This document shows positions 1,458 through 9,616 of a DNA stretch of 64,000 bases, in pieces. Each line of letters starts with the position of its first letter. Position 1 is the first letter of the stretch. The stretch is from a virus. Lineage: Duplodnaviria; Caudoviricetes. The notes below the pieces were generated by a model. It had not been told where the DNA came from, searched no databases, and saw nothing but the letters and a program-made list of their open reading frames with translations. A program made the position numbers and the translations under genes. Location: positions 3,306 through 67,305 of the IMG/VR virus record IMGVR_UViG_3300027863_001680. One strand, given 5' to 3'.

Positions 1458-2375
1458 TCATAATCGCTCTATCGCGTCTTCGAGTGCGTTGTCCGCAAGA
1501 TGCGTGTAGATTTCGGTAGTGGAGATGTCGCGGTGTATGAGGGCGCGCTTTACGAGCAGCAGATCGGAGGTCGCAGCATAGAGGTGCGTTGCGAACGTGT
1601 GTCGCAGACCGTGCGGCGTGACGTTCTTCTGGATTCCGGCCTTGCCGAGCCAGTAAGCAAGACGTTGGGCGACCTGTCGGCAGCAGAGCCTTGTTCCCCG
1701 AGATGAGATGAACAACGCGGTAACATCGGAGCTTGCCTGGCGGTGGCGCTCCTTGAGGTAGCTCCGCAGCAGTGTCCGAAGCGAAGACTTCAGGAACTTG
1801 ACCTGCGGAATATCGCCCTTGCCTGTGATACGAACATGCTTGCCGTCGAGGTCGACGTCGTCAATGTCCAGGCTCACCAGTTCGGCAATGCGGATTCCGG
1901 TACCGAGGAAGAGTTCGAAGATGATCCGGTCGCGACGGGCAAGTGGACTTGTGCGGTCGTGGACTTCCTTGAGAAGTCTGCGCTTCTCGGGTTCGGTGAG
2001 GAACCTCGGGGGCTTGCGCGGCAGGCGTTTCGTGGTCACGGAGATCGCCGGACTGGACTGGATCAGGCCAGTCTGCGTGGCCCAGGCGAAGAACGAGCGC
2101 AGCGCGGCTTTCTGGCGATACATTGTTGCAGCCGATTTCGGCGAGCCGTTCTCGGAACATGCGACCGCCGAGTCAGTGAGTGCGGCATCGATCATCGCCG
2201 GCGTGATATTAGCCAACTCGACATCCGGTAGCACTCGAGCAAAGCACCGGAGGTCGCGCAGGTATGCCGAGATGGTATGCTCCGAGCGGCCTTGCGCCCG
2301 GAGCCTTACCGCAAAATCAGCTATCGCTTGTTCGAGGTCGTTAGTCGGCTGCAGTAGTCGGATCGAGTTCGGCAC
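1458..2375 (-). CDS. XerC/XerD-like tyrosine recombinase (about 305 aa)
   Basis: GTG start at 2375 with GGAGGTG RBS; core-binding N-domain, GIR, TGKG, HGLRH, LIH, TEIYTH. The 427-aa track ORF is over-extended. Confidence 0.92.
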   Translation of the reverse strand: MPNSIRLLQPTNDLEQAIADFAVRLRAQGRSEHTISAYLRDLRCFARVLPDVELANITPAMIDAALTDSAVACSENGSPKSAATMYRQKAALRSFFAWATQTGLIQSSPAISVTTKRLPRKPPRFLTEPEKRRLLKEVHDRTSPLARRDRIIFELFLGTGIRIAELVSLDIDDVDLDGKHVRITGKGDIPQVKFLKSSLRTLLRSYLKERHRQASSDVTALFISSRGTRLCCRQVAQRLAYWLGKAGIQKNVTPHGLRHTFATHLYAATSDLLLVKRALIHRDISTTEIYTHLADNALEDAIERL

Positions 2376-2736
2376 TCTGCACCTCCGATTGTGTCTTGAG
2401 GCTGCGGCCCATAGGTGTGTCTTTCGGGAGTGGGAGCTTGGTGATGTAGCTCTGCTCCAGACACCAGACCAGGAACGCGCGAAAGACTCGGATGGTCTTC
2501 TTGATCGTGATCTCCGAGCGGTCCTTGTCGCCGTGCATCTTGAGAAGCATGTCGGACTTAAGGAATCCGGAGACGTGCGGGACGAGAATCGAGCCGAGCT
2601 TCTTATCCGGTCCGAAGTAAGCTTCGACCTGCTCAAAATCCTTGGAGTAGGTATAGATTGTGCGTTCGCTCTTGCCCTGGCTCTTGAGGTATTCGATGTG
2701 TTCCTCAATGGCCTCGTGCAGTGTCTTTTGTTCCAT
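2341..2736 (-). CDS. Stand-alone integrase SAM-like (core-binding) domain protein
   Basis: ATG at 2736 with GGAGG RBS; AIEEHIEYLKSQGKSERTIYTYSKD resembles the recombinase N-domain; no catalytic domain. Confidence 0.75.
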   Translation of the reverse strand: MEQKTLHEAIEEHIEYLKSQGKSERTIYTYSKDFEQVEAYFGPDKKLGSILVPHVSGFLKSDMLLKMHGDKDRSEITIKKTIRVFRAFLVWCLEQSYITKLPLPKDTPMGRSLKTQSEVQSAELDPTTAAD

Positions 2737-2843
2737 TTCACTACCTCCAGTGGTTGTGTTTAGCATTCACATTCACGCTCAGGTTGCGTGTGAAGTCAAG
2801 GGTTCTTGCCTCAAATGTGCGAGGAAGTGCGGAGGAAAAACGA

Positions 2844-4370
2844 TTGGTTGACGTAACGTCAGAAGAAGAGAGGCTGGGAGTATCTCTGCGGGACCCAGTG
2901 CTGTGGGGGGAAAAGTACCTGCGTAATCGGGACGGCTTCGCGCGCGGCTATTGGCCGCACCAGGTCAAAGACTTGCACTGCGGCGAAAAGAACATTGTCC
3001 ACCTCGACGGCCGCGATGTCGGCAAGAGCATTGTGCTCACAACCGATGCGCTGCACTTCGCATTCACCGTTCGCGGCGGACAGGGCCTCATCGCCGCTCC
3101 GCACCAGGGACATCTGGACACGCTCATCGAGGAGATAGAGTTTCAGCTTGATTCCAACCCCGAGCTTATGAGGAGTATCGCTCTCACGAAATATGGCAAG
3201 CCAAAGATAACCCGTAAGCCTTACTTCAGGCTGGAGTTCACCAACGGTGCTGTTCTTTACTTCCGGCCCGCCGGGGCCTACGGCGATGCATTCAGGTCAC
3301 TGCATGTCGAGCGCGTCTGGGTCGATGAGGGCGCCTGGCTTACGGAGAAGGCATGGAAGGCTCTACGGCAGTGCCTGAAGGCGGGGGGGCGCTTGCGCAT
3401 CTACTCCACACCAAACGGCCTGCGGAACACTACTTACTACCGGCTGACAATGTCGCCGCAGTTCGAGGTGTTCCGATGGCCGTCGTGGATTAACCCGGAC
3501 TGGAGCGAAGATCGTGAGAGGGAGCTTCTTGAATTTTACGGCGGGCGAGACACTGCGGGCTGGCAGCATGAGGTTGCCGGCGAACACGGCAAGCCTTCCT
3601 ACGGCGCGTTCAATATCGAGCACCTGAACCTTTGCCGGCAAGAAATGCCGGAGTATTTGAATGTCGCGATATGCGGTGAGGACATGCGCAACTGCGCGAC
3701 CGAAGAGGAATCCTACGACCGGCTGGAGATGCTTCTTAACCTGATGCCTCAGACCGGCATGTTCTGGATCGGCGGCGACCTGGGTTATACCAACGATCCT
3801 ACGGAGATCGTGGTGTTTCAGGAGATAGAAGTTGGGGAGCGCTCGATCTTGAAACTTGTCCTGCGAATCCACATGGAGCATGTCTCTTACCCGCACATCG
3901 CCCAGACGATATCCCTGCTGGAGAGATATTTCACCCCGGTCGGTATCGGCGTCGATAACGGCGGCAATGGTTTGGCGGTTGTGCAGGAGCTTTTGACCCT
4001 GGACAAATACAAGCAACTTCAGCTTGAGGGCCGACTCTACGGGTATGACTTCGGCGGTATGACAACGCTTGCCGTCCGAGATGGGCGAGAGATCAAAAAG
4101 CGAACCAAGGAATTGATGACCAGCCTCATCTCAGGATCACTGCAGCGCAGGCAGATGGTATTGCCCGCCGATGATCTGGAGATAGAAGATCAGTTCACGA
4201 CTCATACCTACACACTCTCGAACGGCAACGTGATCTACTCCAAAGGCAACGATCACATCATCGACGCCGTGCGCTGCGCGATGCTCGTGCGGGAGCAGAG
4301 AAGTCTGGATCAGCTTACCGAGGAGACGGTATGCGTCATGCCGGTGCTCACTGATCCAGTCTTCTTCTGA
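2844..4370 (+). CDS. terL: Terminase large subunit
   Basis: TTG start after GGAGG; Walker A GRDVGKS, Walker B VWVDEG, nuclease motifs GGDLG, GVDNGG, NDHIID. Confidence 0.92.
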   Translation: MVDVTSEEERLGVSLRDPVLWGEKYLRNRDGFARGYWPHQVKDLHCGEKNIVHLDGRDVGKSIVLTTDALHFAFTVRGGQGLIAAPHQGHLDTLIEEIEFQLDSNPELMRSIALTKYGKPKITRKPYFRLEFTNGAVLYFRPAGAYGDAFRSLHVERVWVDEGAWLTEKAWKALRQCLKAGGRLRIYSTPNGLRNTTYYRLTMSPQFEVFRWPSWINPDWSEDRERELLEFYGGRDTAGWQHEVAGEHGKPSYGAFNIEHLNLCRQEMPEYLNVAICGEDMRNCATEEESYDRLEMLLNLMPQTGMFWIGGDLGYTNDPTEIVVFQEIEVGERSILKLVLRIHMEHVSYPHIAQTISLLERYFTPVGIGVDNGGNGLAVVQELLTLDKYKQLQLEGRLYGYDFGGMTTLAVRDGREIKKRTKELMTSLISGSLQRRQMVLPADDLEIEDQFTTHTYTLSNGNVIYSKGNDHIIDAVRCAMLVREQRSLDQLTEETVCVMPVLTDPVFF

Positions 4371-4384
4371 GCTGATTAATGTGT

Positions 4385-4618
4385 TCAGCAGTCTGATTCC
4401 GCAAGTGCAAGAAGAGTCGAAAGCGGGAGTTGTAATACTCTGGATATGACGATCATCTCGGAAAGTCCCATATCCTTCTTACCGTCTTCCACAAGAGCCA
4501 CATAGTTGGTGGTCATGCCAATGAGCCGCGCGAGCTTATCACGTGTGTATCCCAGCTTCTCCCGCCTCGTTGTGATCACCTGCCCCAACGCTTTCTGATA
4601 TTCTGACTGGTCTTTCAT
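4385..4618 (-). CDS. XRE-family HTH regulator, divergent from the retron operon
   Basis: LGYTRDKLARLIGMTTNYVALVEDG helix-turn-helix pattern. Confidence 0.85.
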   Translation of the reverse strand: MKDQSEYQKALGQVITTRREKLGYTRDKLARLIGMTTNYVALVEDGKKDMGLSEMIVISRVLQLPLSTLLALAESDC

Positions 4619-4729
4619 TGCCTGTCATCCCCTTTGCTTGAAAGTCTTCGCCGAAGCGTGGGGTGCATTCAAACTCTGCTTGGCAGGTAAAGTCAAGTCG
4701 TTTGTGATTTCAGACAAGCGCAGCGCGGT

Positions 4730-4762
4730 TTGTTGAGCACGAGATGTTGTTGAGCACGAGAT
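4730..4762 (+). repeat. Tandem direct repeat TTGTTGAGCACGAGAT (4730-4745 and 4747-4762, period 17)
   Basis: Read directly; abuts the -35 box. Confidence 0.9.
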
Positions 4763-4790
4763 TGTCGGACTGCAAGCTCTCCTGTATAAT
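4762..4790 (+). promoter_or_regulatory. Sigma70-type promoter of the retron operon (TTGTCG-N17-TATAAT)
   Basis: Perfect -10 at 4785-4790 with 17-bp spacer. Confidence 0.7.
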
Positions 4791-4855
4791 GAAGCGAGAC
4801 GCTATTCTATACCATACAAACTCGGCGCTCTCAATGCAAGCGTGGAGAACTGACA

Positions 4856-6259
4856 ATGCCATTACAGATGAAGAGCCTATGCCCTTCGGCTATTGAGGGC
4901 TCAAAGGAGATAGGACGCTGGCTTTCTCAATTCCCTGCAGAGAGCCAGAAAGCCGCCGTGTCTCTTCTCTCTCGCTTGCGATTTGTGTCACGTGACGCCT
5001 ATTCGGATTGGCTGTTGGAAAAACTTGGATACTTGGCCAAAAATGGCAAGTGCGCAGTCTATTCGGTGCGCGAAATCAAAGATCAGAACTGTCTATGGAA
5101 TGACCGCGATGAAGTCGTAGGACGCCACGGAACTTCAGAAGGAAGTGAGGATCTTGTATATTCCCTGATTGGCAATGCCGCTAGATTGTACAAGGACATG
5201 ATACTCGATCATCCAAGCCTCCACATCTTGAGGGATGAACAGGTTCACGATGTCGTTCTCTTGGACGATTCCGTAGGCAGCGGGAACAGAGTGGCCGGAT
5301 TCATTAGATTGATGATGGCTCACAAAACGTTCAGAAGTTGGTGGAGTCTTGGACTTATTAAACTCCACATTGTTTCGCTCGCCCGTACCCGCGAGTCAAA
5401 GCGGGTGATTCTCGAAGCTCTTCCTGGAAGCGATCACGGGAAAAGGAAATACCGCAAGTCAACGAAGATCGTATTCTTGAGCGATATTGTCTATGGAATG
5501 TTTTGGCTGAAAAGGCGGTGGGGGCAGCGATATCAGGACATCATTGATTTGTGTGATGGCCAGACCGCAATACCAGAGGGTCTTCGCCAAGGCTACGGAG
5601 GTGCGATGGCGAGTATTGTATTCTACCATAGCGTTCCGAATAATACGCCCGGGGTCATCTGGCGCAAAAGACGTAATTGGAAGCCGCTATTTCCGGGAAG
5701 GGCCGTCCCGGATTGGCTTCCCGCATTGCTCGATAGCTGTGAGCAACGCACGGCAAAAGTAGGACAGACGGCAGATGCTGCGCACGGGGGCATTGCGATA
5801 TTGCCAGCTGGAATGCTGGAGTTACTTTCACTGATCAGACTTGGTGTAAGGAGAACCTCAAGCCTTGCCCTACGCATGGACCTTGACGTGGAGTTCACTA
5901 AGTCAATCTTGCAGAATGCTATACATGCTGGATTTGTCTCAGAGAATGGGCGTATCACCGAGGCTGGAATTACTGCTCTGGAACGTCAAAACGCGGGTGC
6001 TATGCGTACGTTTGACCGTTCGCTGTATATACCACAATCCTGGTGTAGTGACCAGGCTTCCATTCAGCCGCCTGCTTTCGCAGAGCAGGCAGATCCTGTT
6101 GAAGTTGATACTCCAACAGGTGGGGATGCCGGACAGGTATCTCTGGAAAGAACTGACGCTACGACGACTCCGTCGTCCAGCATGGTCAGGCCCCAAGCAC
6201 CTTCGAAGTCTCGGAAGGGCCCCGACCATGATGGCCCCTTGGGCCAAAGGGAGAGGTGA
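4856..6259 (+). CDS. Retron effector: PRTase-like domain + winged HTH, with a low-complexity tail overlapping the ncRNA
   Basis: PRPP-loop motif VLLDDSVGSG; wHTH-like LLSLIRLG...GRITEAG; stop codon abuts the RT start. Confidence 0.75.
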   Translation: MPLQMKSLCPSAIEGSKEIGRWLSQFPAESQKAAVSLLSRLRFVSRDAYSDWLLEKLGYLAKNGKCAVYSVREIKDQNCLWNDRDEVVGRHGTSEGSEDLVYSLIGNAARLYKDMILDHPSLHILRDEQVHDVVLLDDSVGSGNRVAGFIRLMMAHKTFRSWWSLGLIKLHIVSLARTRESKRVILEALPGSDHGKRKYRKSTKIVFLSDIVYGMFWLKRRWGQRYQDIIDLCDGQTAIPEGLRQGYGGAMASIVFYHSVPNNTPGVIWRKRRNWKPLFPGRAVPDWLPALLDSCEQRTAKVGQTADAAHGGIAILPAGMLELLSLIRLGVRRTSSLALRMDLDVEFTKSILQNAIHAGFVSENGRITEAGITALERQNAGAMRTFDRSLYIPQSWCSDQASIQPPAFAEQADPVEVDTPTGGDAGQVSLERTDATTTPSSSMVRPQAPSKSRKGPDHDGPLGQRER

Positions 6260-6274
6260 ATGGAAGTCTGGTCA
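6049..6274 (+). ncRNA. Retron msr-msd ncRNA (predicted), embedded in the effector 3' end and RT start
   Basis: a1/a2 repeat TGACCAGGCTTCCATTCA (6049-6066) / TGAATGGAAGTCTGGTCA (6257-6274), 17/18 plus one G-U; G6067 in AGC context opposite G6256; six internal hairpins. Confidence 0.75.
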
Positions 6275-7426
6275 GTACACCAGCTCTTCGAGCAAGCAAA
6301 AGCTGATCTCGGGGTAGACAGGTCATCAGAACTGCGAAAATACGCTCAATATCTCATCCACTCGGGACTACCGGTGATCTTCTCATTGAAGCACTTGTCC
6401 AAGATCACACGAGTGAATTACGGCGTTCTTCGCGATACCGTAGGGCGCAGGAGAGAATCAGCGAACTATCGAATGTTCCCGGTGAAGAAACGGTCTGGAG
6501 GCCGGCGGTTCATCCATGCTGTTTCCGGGCAGCTATTTTCAGTGCAGCAGTTCATCAACGCCGACATTCTGCAGAACGTGGCTCCGCACACATCGTCGTT
6601 TGCTTTCCACTGGAATGGTGGAATTCAGAAATGTGCAGCAATGCATTGTGGTGCGAAGTGGCTCTTCCAGTTCGATCTGTCGGATTTCTTCTACGACATC
6701 AATGAGATCGACGTGTTCCGTATCTTCCAGCAGCTTGGATACCGGAAGCTCCTGGCGTTCGAACTGGCACGAATCTGTACTACAATACACCTACCAGCGC
6801 ATCTAAAATGCACCTTTAAGGTACATCGGTACTTCCCAGAATGTCACCCCCCATACGGAGTGTCGTACGACGCAGGAGTTCTGCCTCAAGGTGCCCCCAC
6901 CAGCCCTATGTTAAGCAATTTAGCTGCGAGGGAACTGGACGAGCGACTTTTTGAGTTTGCAGTGGCAAACGGTTTCGTCTACACTCGATACGCCGACGAT
7001 ATCACCTTGTCGGCAAGAGAACTACCAAGTAGAGTGTCTGTTGGGGATATCCATCGGCAGTCAACGCATATCATCAGAACCTGTGGATTCAGAGAGAACA
7101 AGAAGAAGACTCGTGTAGCGGGGCCAGGTTCAAGAAAGATCGTTCTCGGGTTGCTTATAGATGGTGATCAACCACGGATATCACGAGAGACGTACAATAG
7201 GATTGACCGTCACCTATATGCTGCAACAAAGTTTGGTATTGTCGAAACAGCAAGCCACGAAGGCTTTGACTCAGCTTACGGTTTCTACAATCATCTCGCA
7301 GGTCTGATATCATTTGTAAATGATGTGGATAAGAAGAGGTGGACTGAGTTCCACGCACGATTGAGTAAAATCACCGTCCCTTGGCAGACGCCATCAGGAA
7401 CGCAATATGGGGAGTTCTCGCAATAG
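6260..7426 (+). CDS. Retron-type reverse transcriptase
   Basis: FDLSDFF, LPQGAPTSPMLSN, YTRYADD; region X variant CAAMH; region Y variant VLGL. Confidence 0.92.
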   Translation: MEVWSVHQLFEQAKADLGVDRSSELRKYAQYLIHSGLPVIFSLKHLSKITRVNYGVLRDTVGRRRESANYRMFPVKKRSGGRRFIHAVSGQLFSVQQFINADILQNVAPHTSSFAFHWNGGIQKCAAMHCGAKWLFQFDLSDFFYDINEIDVFRIFQQLGYRKLLAFELARICTTIHLPAHLKCTFKVHRYFPECHPPYGVSYDAGVLPQGAPTSPMLSNLAARELDERLFEFAVANGFVYTRYADDITLSARELPSRVSVGDIHRQSTHIIRTCGFRENKKKTRVAGPGSRKIVLGLLIDGDQPRISRETYNRIDRHLYAATKFGIVETASHEGFDSAYGFYNHLAGLISFVNDVDKKRWTEFHARLSKITVPWQTPSGTQYGEFSQ

Positions 7427-7462
7427 GAGTCTGAGCTACTGATCTGCATAGTCTGATGGGAG

Positions 7463-7726
7463 TCATCGCTGACTGGACCGATAATCAAAGTCAAAGCATG
7501 TCGAACCACATCTGGAATTATCGTCGTGTCGGCTGAAGATCAGGAAGATCACCGCAGGCGGATCGAGGAGCCTGTCACACATTCTCAGCATGCTGCTGAT
7601 GACCTCTGCTGCGATCATTACAGATAAGCACGCAAAGAGAGAGTCAGGCCATTCGATGTATCTGACGATAACCCCTGACACCAAAGCGCCTGCTGCATAG
7701 ATCAATTCGGTCTTCAGATGTCTCAT
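7463..7726 (-). CDS. Small putative membrane protein
   Basis: GGAGG RBS; two hydrophobic segments. Confidence 0.5.
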   Translation of the reverse strand: MRHLKTELIYAAGALVSGVIVRYIEWPDSLFACLSVMIAAEVISSMLRMCDRLLDPPAVIFLIFSRHDDNSRCGSTCFDFDYRSSQR

Positions 7727-7999
7727 GATTACTACCTCCGCGCTTTAGTCAGGAGCTTGTTTCGCTTCATTTTCCTGCCATGATGTTCATGCCACGCGGC
7801 GTGCTACTTATATGATTCGATAAATACCAGTATTTGAGACGGGTTTATCATCGTTTTTGCTAGCCGGGCGTGAGACCCATGGAGCGTAACACGGCGCGGA
7901 TATAGTAATGATCTTGTCGTTTGCACTGCTCTTGGCCGCTTTATATAGATAGCAGCCCCATCAACACTTCCCCAGCAGGTATCGCTCCACACAAATCAG

Positions 8000-8032
8000 T
8001 TTCAACACTTCAGTGCCGGTTCCGGTAAATAT
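8000..8032 (+). promoter_or_regulatory. Putative late promoter, copy 1 (TTTCAACACT-N11-TCCGGTAAATAT)
   Basis: Same 33-bp bipartite motif at 20297 and 35832; upstream of portal. Confidence 0.65.
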
Positions 8033-8083
8033 TGAATCGGCGGAGCTTGCTTCGCTATACCTTCAGAAGGAAACGAGGGGAAC

Positions 8084-9616
8084 GTGGAAAGCGGCACTCG
8101 AAGATCACGAACAAAGAAACCCACCAGCCAGACGACTCTTCAGGATCAGGACAGTATGCAGGCTCAGGGCATGGTCATCACACCAATGGCGACAGCCGCC
8201 ATGCTTGACTCGGCCGCGTTTGCCCGCATCAATCCCGATGATTGTGCCATTCCAAAGAACTGGGAAGAACGCGCCAAGAAAGCCTGGGAGTACTATGTCG
8301 AGGAACCGCTGGTCAAAAACTGCATCAATTCCTGGCGGACGTTCGCAGTCGGGGACGAGATAAGAATCACGAGCGACGATGATGCCGTTAAGCAGGAGGC
8401 AAATGATCTTGCCGACCGACTTGGTGTATCCGAGTTTGTGAAAGATATGGTCCTGCAACTCCTTGTAAAGGGCGATGCGGTAGGCTTCAAACGATACACC
8501 AAAGACGGCAAAGATATCGAGGAACTCACTTGTGTCAATCCGGTCTCGATCAAGGTCAAGTATGCTCAGGGGCAACTCGTCGAGGTGCAGCAGTTCCCGG
8601 AAGACAGTCCAACCGCCGGCGACGGCCTGAAGCTGCCCGTTGAACAGACACTGCATCTCAAGTGGGATGCGCCATCGTTCTCACCGCGCGGCAACTCCCT
8701 CGTTCTTCCCGCTTTCGAGTCCATTGAGCTTCTCCGGGACTATCGGCGAGCGGAGAAAGCAATCGCAAGACGCTGGGCCACGCCGTTCAGACTCATCAAG
8801 GTCGGCGGTGCGTTCGGCCAGAAAATGGTGATGCCCGACCAGAAGATGCTCGAACAGACCCGCGACACGGTTAACAAAATGGACATGAAGAGCGGGCTGG
8901 TAGTGCCCTTCTATGTCACAGTTGAGACTCATGGCACCGAGGGCCAGGTGCTTAACGTCGAGGAGAAGGTCAAAGAGGTCAAGGAAGATATAGTTGTCGC
9001 TCTCGGTCTCTCCCGGTCACTCGTTGCAGGCGACGGCCCCAACTTTGCCACGGCATCGGTGAGCATGCAGAAGATGCTCATCATGATCCGAGAGATAAAG
9101 CATGCCGCGCGCACTATCCTCGATTGGATATATGACGACTGGCTGGAGATAAGCGGACACCAGGACAAAGGCATTCAGTTTGTCTTCAACGACCTCGATC
9201 CCACGGACGCGGTAGACTTCAAGAAGCTCCTTATAGAGCTGTACGACCGCAAGCTCATAAGTCGTTCGTCTCTGCAGCTAAAGATGGATCTGGACCCAGA
9301 CACCGAGACGGCGAACCGGCAGCACGAAGGCAAGTCGGTCGATCTCCTGGATGAAAAACAGGTCAAACCAATAGTCGATATGGTAGTTGCCGGGATCATG
9401 GGCATCGAGGCGGCGCAGCAGATGCTTGGGCTAGACCCGGCGAAGAACCGACCGGGCGGTCAGGCGGCGGCAGGACTGTATTCCAGCGCGGACGTCGGCG
9501 AGATGTGCGACTCCTGTGCCTACTTCGGCGACGAGCAGAACCGGTGCGACGTCACCAAGGCCGAGACCACCTTTGACTCCCCGGCATGCCGTTTCTTTGA
9601 ACACAAGAGAGTCTGA
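8084..9616 (+). CDS. Portal protein (putative), with a C-terminal four-Cys motif
   Basis: Size (510 aa) and position between TerL and MuF; GAGGGG RBS. Confidence 0.75.
   Translation: MESGTRRSRTKKPTSQTTLQDQDSMQAQGMVITPMATAAMLDSAAFARINPDDCAIPKNWEERAKKAWEYYVEEPLVKNCINSWRTFAVGDEIRITSDDDAVKQEANDLADRLGVSEFVKDMVLQLLVKGDAVGFKRYTKDGKDIEELTCVNPVSIKVKYAQGQLVEVQQFPEDSPTAGDGLKLPVEQTLHLKWDAPSFSPRGNSLVLPAFESIELLRDYRRAEKAIARRWATPFRLIKVGGAFGQKMVMPDQKMLEQTRDTVNKMDMKSGLVVPFYVTVETHGTEGQVLNVEEKVKEVKEDIVVALGLSRSLVAGDGPNFATASVSMQKMLIMIREIKHAARTILDWIYDDWLEISGHQDKGIQFVFNDLDPTDAVDFKKLLIELYDRKLISRSSLQLKMDLDPDTETANRQHEGKSVDLLDEKQVKPIVDMVVAGIMGIEAAQQMLGLDPAKNRPGGQAAAGLYSSADVGEMCDSCAYFGDEQNRCDVTKAETTFDSPACRFFEHKRV

Follow-up and report, generated by a model that had tools for sequence, protein, structure and literature searches.

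A predicted msr-msd RNA lying wholly within the effector and reverse transcriptase reading frames of a type III-A retron in a phage-like locus

The window (the whole 64,000-nucleotide stretch of viral DNA analysed here) contains a retron cassette that is flanked by a large terminase gene (2721-4370) and a portal gene (8084-9616) in a region that is phage-like. The cassette consists of an effector ORF of 467 amino acids (4856-6259, plus strand) that directly abuts an ORF of 388 amino acids encoding a retron reverse transcriptase (RT; 6260-7426, plus strand). As claimed in an earlier interpretation made without database searches (the 'sequence-only reading'), the ORF coordinates leave no intergenic gap between the two genes, the effector stop codon TGA (6257-6259) being followed immediately by the RT start codon ATG at 6260. 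The GC content of the cassette is 0.48-0.54, compared to 0.53-0.59 for the terminase and portal genes. A gene for a 77-amino acid HTH regulator (4385-4618, minus strand) lies just upstream of the retron on the opposite strand, an integrase gene (1458-2741, minus strand) overlaps the start of the terminase gene, and an 87-amino acid ORF between the RT and portal genes (7463-7726, minus strand) had no match in PHROG. A consensus scan detected a weak candidate sigma-70-like promoter at 4762-4790 on the plus strand (TTGTCG, 17 nt spacer, TATAAT; 10/12 consensus positions), from which an effector-ncRNA-RT transcript could originate, and detected no promoter-like site directly before the ncRNA.

The effector comprises a PRTase-CE domain (residues 20-280) and a winged helix (residues 322-397), followed by a tail of 68 residues that is encoded by the predicted ncRNA. 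It matched PF24390 (6.4e-24) and PF24409 (3.2e-13) in Pfam and the PRTase_III-A model in PADLOC (3e-86, covering residues 11-398 only); the tail (residues 398-467, about 70 codons) was covered by neither Pfam nor PADLOC. The sequence HSVPNNTPG, which includes a PNNxP motif, forms a conserved block in which the H, S, V and both prolines are invariant among homologues. A protein search returned more than 100 homologues with 43-50% identity, nearly all of which are ~466 amino acids long and cover the query from end to end, and their tails align well at the amino acid level. The effector start is ambiguous within 4856-4870: an identical database protein is 463 amino acids long and begins at the second ATG, so the true start may be the ATG at 4868. 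The RT matched the PADLOC model RT_III-A (2.4e-156) and Pfam RVT_1, and its closest solved relative is the RT of Retron-Eco1 (Ec86; type II-A3; 2e-37). It contains the YADD motif expected of retron RTs, and its region X (CAAMH) and region Y (VLG) sequences are variants of the consensus; their departure from the canonical NAxxH and VTG we counted against the explanation that we prefer. The Ec86 effector likewise carries a winged helix, and its C-terminal peptide contacts the msDNA. It is, however, an NDT-like enzyme and not a PRTase, and the Ec86 msr-msd is found in non-coding DNA ahead of the genes. A PRTase-like effector with a PNNxP motif and a winged-helix DNA-binding domain, adjoining an RT, is what defines type III-A, and this is the arrangement found in the window.

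Retron RNAs are normally looked for in intergenic DNA upstream of the RT. The sequence-only reading had placed a complete msr-msd RNA inside coding sequence, closed by a stem between 6049-6066 and 6257-6274. We found this stem to be longer than claimed: the inverted repeat pairs 6040-6066 with 6257-6283 (27 nt, 93% complementary) and ranks first among the inverted repeats in 3 kb. The segment 6045-6280 folds with -120.1 kcal/mol (z = -7.24), and none of 200 shuffled sequences was as stable. From arm to arm, the predicted msr-msd ncRNA occupies 6040-6283 on the plus strand, and every one of its bases lies inside either the effector ORF (4856-6259) or the RT ORF (6260-7426), so that the claim of an RNA contained wholly in protein-coding frames holds in the window. 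Its 5' arm (a1; 6040-6066) doubles as the codons for effector residues S-W-C-S-D-Q-A-S-I. Its 3' arm (a2; 6257-6283) holds the effector stop codon, the RT start codon (6260-6262) and RT codons 2-8. Directly after the 5' arm, in the AGC context described earlier, stands G6067, the predicted branching G that would provide the primer 2'-OH; it is nucleotide 28 of the RNA and the third base of a CAG codon. Three msr stem-loops (6070-6090, 6095-6120 and 6122-6144) are followed by the strongly conserved unpaired block GGAAAGAACTGACGC (6145-6159) and by the predicted msd template (6160-6256), the extent of which is set by analogy and which contains a short hairpin (6163-6177), a long hairpin (6180-6231) and a small hairpin (6234-6246). 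The template ends with GGGAGAGG (6249-6256, plus strand), an unpaired Shine-Dalgarno-like site for the RT, in which AAAGGAG is conserved ahead of the RT ATG. An Rfam scan of 4000-8500 at a permissive threshold returned no retron family, just a chance match to a snoRNA.

We collected 25 related loci from genomes of many phyla (Gammaproteobacteria, Verrucomicrobiota, Planctomycetota, Spirochaetota, Acidobacteriota and Bacteroidota) and 80 further loci from metagenomes; since the search patterns lie in the N-terminal domain of the effector, this sample is unbiased with respect to tail length. The regions from the YIP motif to the 3' arm were aligned for 67 non-redundant loci (alignment A2). In the RNAalifold consensus for A2, a two-segment closing helix encloses three hairpins, an unpaired block that is conserved, and then one short and one long hairpin; 50 of the 65 predicted pairs carry compensatory changes. 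When we considered the 63 pairs of the named structure across the 67 sequences, 93.6% of cells were paired, compared to 35-43% when the partners were slid by 1-3 columns, and 50 of the 63 pairs showed compensatory changes; cells with changes on both sides numbered 741, compared to 97-176 in the slid controls, and none of 500 shuffles matched the observed values. The covariation among homologue tails by which the sequence-only reading proposed that its stem be judged is present. Pairing reaches 98.3% in both the outer and the inner closing helix. A6066 and G6067 do not vary in any of the 67 sequences, and conservation of C6068 and C6069 is 90% or higher, which is the signature of a branching G, and the columns of the 6145-6159 block are nearly invariant. 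The three msr stem-loops changed on both sides at 6/6, 11/11 and 6/9 pairs, respectively, and msd helices 7-9 showed compensatory changes at 5/6, 2/2 and 12/12 pairs. Hence, of the hairpins described earlier, those at 6070-6090, 6095-6120, ~6122-6144, 6163-6177 and 6180-6231 stand as covarying helices, and the one at 6232-6246 stands as a single-sequence fold only, its covariation having been judged by eye only. A structured RNA adjoining an RT, with a1/a2 inverted repeats and a conserved G 3' of a1, is characteristic of retrons in general; on this strong comparative support we consider the stretch to be a retron msr-msd RNA, from which the synthesis of msDNA is predicted.

The closest described system is Retron-Eco11, a type III-A3 retron of E. 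coli EC2608 (Garcia-Rodriguez et al., NAR 2025; PMC12746101). In Eco11 the ncRNA overlaps the 3' end of the effector gene and the 5' end of the RT gene, with the RT start codon in the 3' arm; the closing helix has segments of 14 and 11 bp, between which two A's of the effector stop codon bulge out; the branching G is rG28; and three msr stem-loops precede a 101-nt msDNA with two stem-loops (PMC12746101). The Eco11 effector ends in a tail of 24 amino acids, the last nine residues of which are YYPxxLRxx, and defence is lost when the branching G, the RT active site, the PRPP motif or the two tyrosines of YYPxxLRxx are mutated (PMC12746101). Similarly, the extreme C-terminal peptide of the Ec86 effector is essential for defence and contacts both the msr RNA and the msd DNA (PMC12746101). 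Compared by its published description, Eco11 resembles the window retron in the order of its parts (an effector with PRTase and winged helix, an ncRNA and a clade-9-like RT), in its two-segment closing helix of ~25 bp, in the G at nucleotide 28, in its three msr hairpins and its short and long msd hairpins, in the Y-x-P-x-x motif of the effector just ahead of the arm, and in the RT start codon within the 3' arm. The two differ, again by published description, in where the effector ends: the Eco11 effector stops nine residues past the first Tyr, with its stop codon between the arm segments, whereas in the window the corresponding motif YIPQSWCSD (residues 391-399; 6026-6052) is internal and the frame continues for 68 codons to the RT start. 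The window effector therefore does not end in the nine-residue peptide that is terminal in type III-A3, LYIPQSWCSD being followed by 68 further residues; early-stop relatives of the window retron do end nine residues past the Tyr. The published Eco11 primer core had no match in the collected loci or viral contigs, and the E. coli genomes searched yielded related retrons whose effector frame stops within the RNA, and not Eco11.

Types III-A4 and III-A5 also have a PRTase fused to a winged helix, and their ncRNAs are listed as not determined (Mestre et al. 2020; PMC7736814), with an ncRNA model still lacking in 2026 (PMC13712802). The window's family shares its broad taxonomic spread with III-A5; III-A4 is reported from Bacteroidota only, which misfits it. 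NCBIfam and Pfam searches at E = 10 gave no subtype signal for A3 or A5, and the PADLOC and Pfam models that we used bear no retron subtype labels. An RNA concealed in an annotated coding sequence would explain why the III-A4 and III-A5 ncRNAs have escaped determination.

To describe how far the effector frame runs in relatives, the 67 loci were read from the Tyr codon and sorted into four classes. In class A (37/67, ~55%), to which the window's arrangement corresponds, the effector frame ends at the RT start or a few codons earlier, mostly as TGA directly followed by ATGGAA. In class B (17/67) it ends, as in Eco11, in the 5' arm or at the codon of the branching G, with TAG in place of the window's CAG, and in class C (12/67) it ends deeper within the RNA; thus, ~45% of the relatives end the effector inside the RNA. 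The single class F locus (1/67) has TGT in place of TGA, which fuses effector and RT in frame: in L035 (3156-3432 of metagenome contig Ga0315276_10002633) effector, tail and RT form one ORF, and the first stop lies 1380 nt past the Tyr codon. Read-through of the TGA would likewise be expected to yield an effector-RT fusion in most class A loci, because TGA and ATG share a frame there. A profile of A2 brought in fifteen loci that our motif filter had passed over, and these were again mostly class A. The class A stop codon is dictated by the helix, because TGA (6257-6259) pairs with TCA (6064-6066); an ORF in the effector frame has no choice but to end one base ahead of the RT ATG. The pair 6065-6258 illustrates this relationship: it is C-G in 55 sequences and U-A in 12, so that in class B the paired base changes from G to A and TGA becomes TAA with the pair kept, a compensatory change. 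In those 12 relatives the codon of G6067 reads TAG, which in some of them is the effector stop codon. Full embedding of the RNA in reading frames is, on this comparative evidence, common in the family yet dispensable to it and not obligatory. A sub-clade of five loci (L006, e.g. 3650-3925, L008, L057, L069 and L073) has TGGATGG instead of TGAATGG in the 3' arm together with a compensating C in the 5' arm. In the first four of these the effector stop has shifted to a TAG or TAA located 4 nt upstream of the RT ATG, with a length of 1 mod 3, so that the stop lost from the helix is re-created beside the RT start; L073 has the TGGATGG arm too, and its effector stops earlier, inside the RNA.

The distribution of classes also bears on whether the open frame is real. 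One explanation would be an assembly or sequencing error, such as an indel that masks a stop codon, and the -1 frame of the window does hold a TAG and a TGA at 6046-6051, the very place at which relatives stop; a related explanation would be that the folded region is an element other than a retron RNA. The TAG-TGA pair is not conserved, and we take it to be a chance feature specific to the window; its absence from relatives also led us to reject a programmed -1 frameshift onto these codons. The same open frame recurs in more than 40 independent contigs and in more than 100 database proteins, and the fold, the invariant G6067 and the retron genes on either side are all consistent with a retron, with no competing Rfam family. 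We regard both explanations as effectively refuted by the comparative data and give them almost no weight.

Since the tail is conserved among homologues, we considered whether it is the peptide or the RNA that is conserved. For 23 class A tails that all measure 249 nt between the Tyr codon and the RT start, and so align without gaps, the Nei-Gojobori pN/pS was 0.84 in frame compared to 0.82 and 0.90 in the two wrong frames, although this result represents absence of evidence for selection on the peptide and not proof of its absence, the test being low in power because RNA constraints dominate. Past the branching G, variability was flat by codon position and no three-base periodicity was detected. 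AlphaFold2, run with the family alignment, modelled the two domains confidently and gave residues 380-467 a pLDDT of ~30 with no secondary structure. Conserved pieces of the tail coincide with RNA features: SLERSDAKAA corresponds to the conserved unpaired block and hairpin 4, and GSKER to the Shine-Dalgarno region of the RT. Given equal pN/pS across frames, flat codon positions and predicted disorder, what looks like protein conservation in the tail is best read as conservation of RNA, with no selection seen at the amino acid level; this agrees with the earlier suggestion that RNA structure shapes these ~70 codons. The 68 residues could nevertheless form a functional disordered extension that contacts the msDNA or the RT, or masks the C-terminal peptide, and that is selected for its composition or for a few residues. 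The C-terminal peptide is essential in both Eco11 and Ec86, so that the internal position of the motif here should matter, and the frame is open in all deep clades. Against this stand the equality of in-frame and out-of-frame pN/pS with no periodicity, the lack of any predicted structure or family match, and the frequency of tail-less relatives, and we therefore judge a functional tail to be improbable.

If the peptide is not under selection, the question arises of whether the frame itself is kept open. In class A the other two frames contain on average 1.8 and 4.2 stops and each is open in just 5 of the 67 sequences; a +1 frame ORF across this region (5865-6317) was rejected as a gene for this reason, and a minus-strand ORF (5939-6247) was set aside as an improbable gene. 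The spacing between the motif and the RT ATG is divisible by three in 33 of 37 class A loci and is evenly distributed over the three remainders in classes B and C. On a tree of effector bodies, class A occurs in every deep clade, and classes B and C have at least 10 origins, most of them close to the tips; as early-stop states arose so often, reading through the RNA is dispensable. The retron itself is a further member of type III-A. Our search of the literature for effector ORFs spanning a retron ncRNA, or for translational coupling in retrons, returned just the statement on overlapping ends in Eco11 (PMC12746101), and no account of complete embedding of the msr-msd as a deep and common state of a large family.

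It is possible that the ncRNA is a normal one and that the open frame is a tolerated accident that followed ancestral loss of a stop in the 5' arm, with neither ribosome passage nor the tail having any role. RNA constraints would have frozen most positions, so that the frame has merely not decayed so far in many lineages; amino acid-level selection is absent and the tail is predicted to be disordered; early stops are repeated and are carried by whole clades, such as a five-member clade with the Haemophilus locus L013; and the validated Eco11 functions with its stop in the arm. Moreover, in-frame and out-of-frame length changes stand at ~11 to 9, which is only mildly above the neutral expectation of 1:2 and thus a weak excess. 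However, class A partners that are up to 2.6 substitutions per site apart share only 57-64% identity in the RNA interior, meaning that the variable hairpins have been essentially randomised between deep lineages with the frame still open. In addition, in class B the former frame 0 holds ~5 stops, equal to the other frames, which indicates that stops build up in old early-stop lineages where the frame is no longer read, and the other two frames are seldom open in any class. Finally, we resampled every column and base pair from the family-wide distributions, a null that respects the RNA constraints and is biased towards openness: the probability of an open frame was 0.17, compared to 30 of 67 sequences (45%) observed to be fully open and ~55% in class A, although the null presumes lineages near equilibrium and shared descent inflates the excess. 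This excess suggests selection for the passage of ribosomes and not for the peptide. On balance, an accident is a minority possibility, and openness of the effector frame is probably selected, by a modest preponderance of the comparative evidence, while being dispensable.

The explanation that we consider quite likely overall is that of a type III-A retron in which the effector frame runs through an entire Eco11-like RNA, the tail is a by-product and the passage of ribosomes may matter. A single transcript would carry the effector, the msr-msd RNA and the RT. By analogy with Eco11, the 2'-OH of G6067 would prime cDNA synthesis by the RT on approximately 6160-6256, and the 6145-6159 block may represent the end point of reverse transcription and the site of an RNA-DNA duplex, as judged from the 101-nt msDNA of Eco11. 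Abortive-infection phage protection that requires the RT, the branching G and the effector active site was shown for Eco11 (PMC12746101), and by the same analogy the msDNA would bridge the RT and effector, and the complex would stay inactive until a phage infects. The ~68 extra effector residues would be a by-product of the RNA sequence. A ribosome reading the tail would melt the closing helix in which the RT start is buried and would then terminate one base before the RT ATG. In class A the helix would be opened by reading through to the TGA and in class B by termination on the 5' arm; in either class the RT start would be exposed and RT synthesis coupled to effector synthesis. The RNA would refold as a template only while untranslated, so that any one RNA would switch between being translated and being reverse transcribed. 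The RT ATG takes part in the arm helix, and the Shine-Dalgarno-like site, which is conserved, stays unpaired; this geometry is the one ground on which we infer the coupling mechanism. A bolder proposal, to which we attach a distinctly lower probability than to the explanation as a whole, is that this phylum-spanning branch of type III-A actively keeps the frame open, that ribosome transit is a control step and that translation and reverse transcription are mutually exclusive. If true, concealment within annotated coding sequences would account for retron subtypes for which no ncRNA is known.

These findings bear on how retrons and proteins are annotated. A complete msr-msd can disappear from annotation by being taken for a protein C-terminus, and hundreds of 466-amino acid 'PRTase-like' proteins are present in public databases; for the discovery of retrons this is relevant to III-A4 and III-A5, and for protein family models it means that a conserved 'tail' may reflect conserved RNA and be no domain. 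In retron-based genome editing, changing the msd of such a retron would also rewrite the effector. The system offers a natural case of one RNA that would be translated, folded as a template and reverse transcribed, and its natural variants (three kinds of stop position and an effector-RT fusion) provide ready controls. Two complete E. coli genomes carry relatives of this retron in which the stop lies 60 nt inside the RNA, DETEC-S792 (L106; NZ_CP116067.1) and PapRG-04-4 (L107; NZ_CP049201.1); their effectors are annotated as 431 and 406 amino acids, respectively, each is separated from the RT by a 188-nt 'intergenic' gap and has a relaxase gene adjoining it, and the two represent handy natural early-stop versions for experiments.
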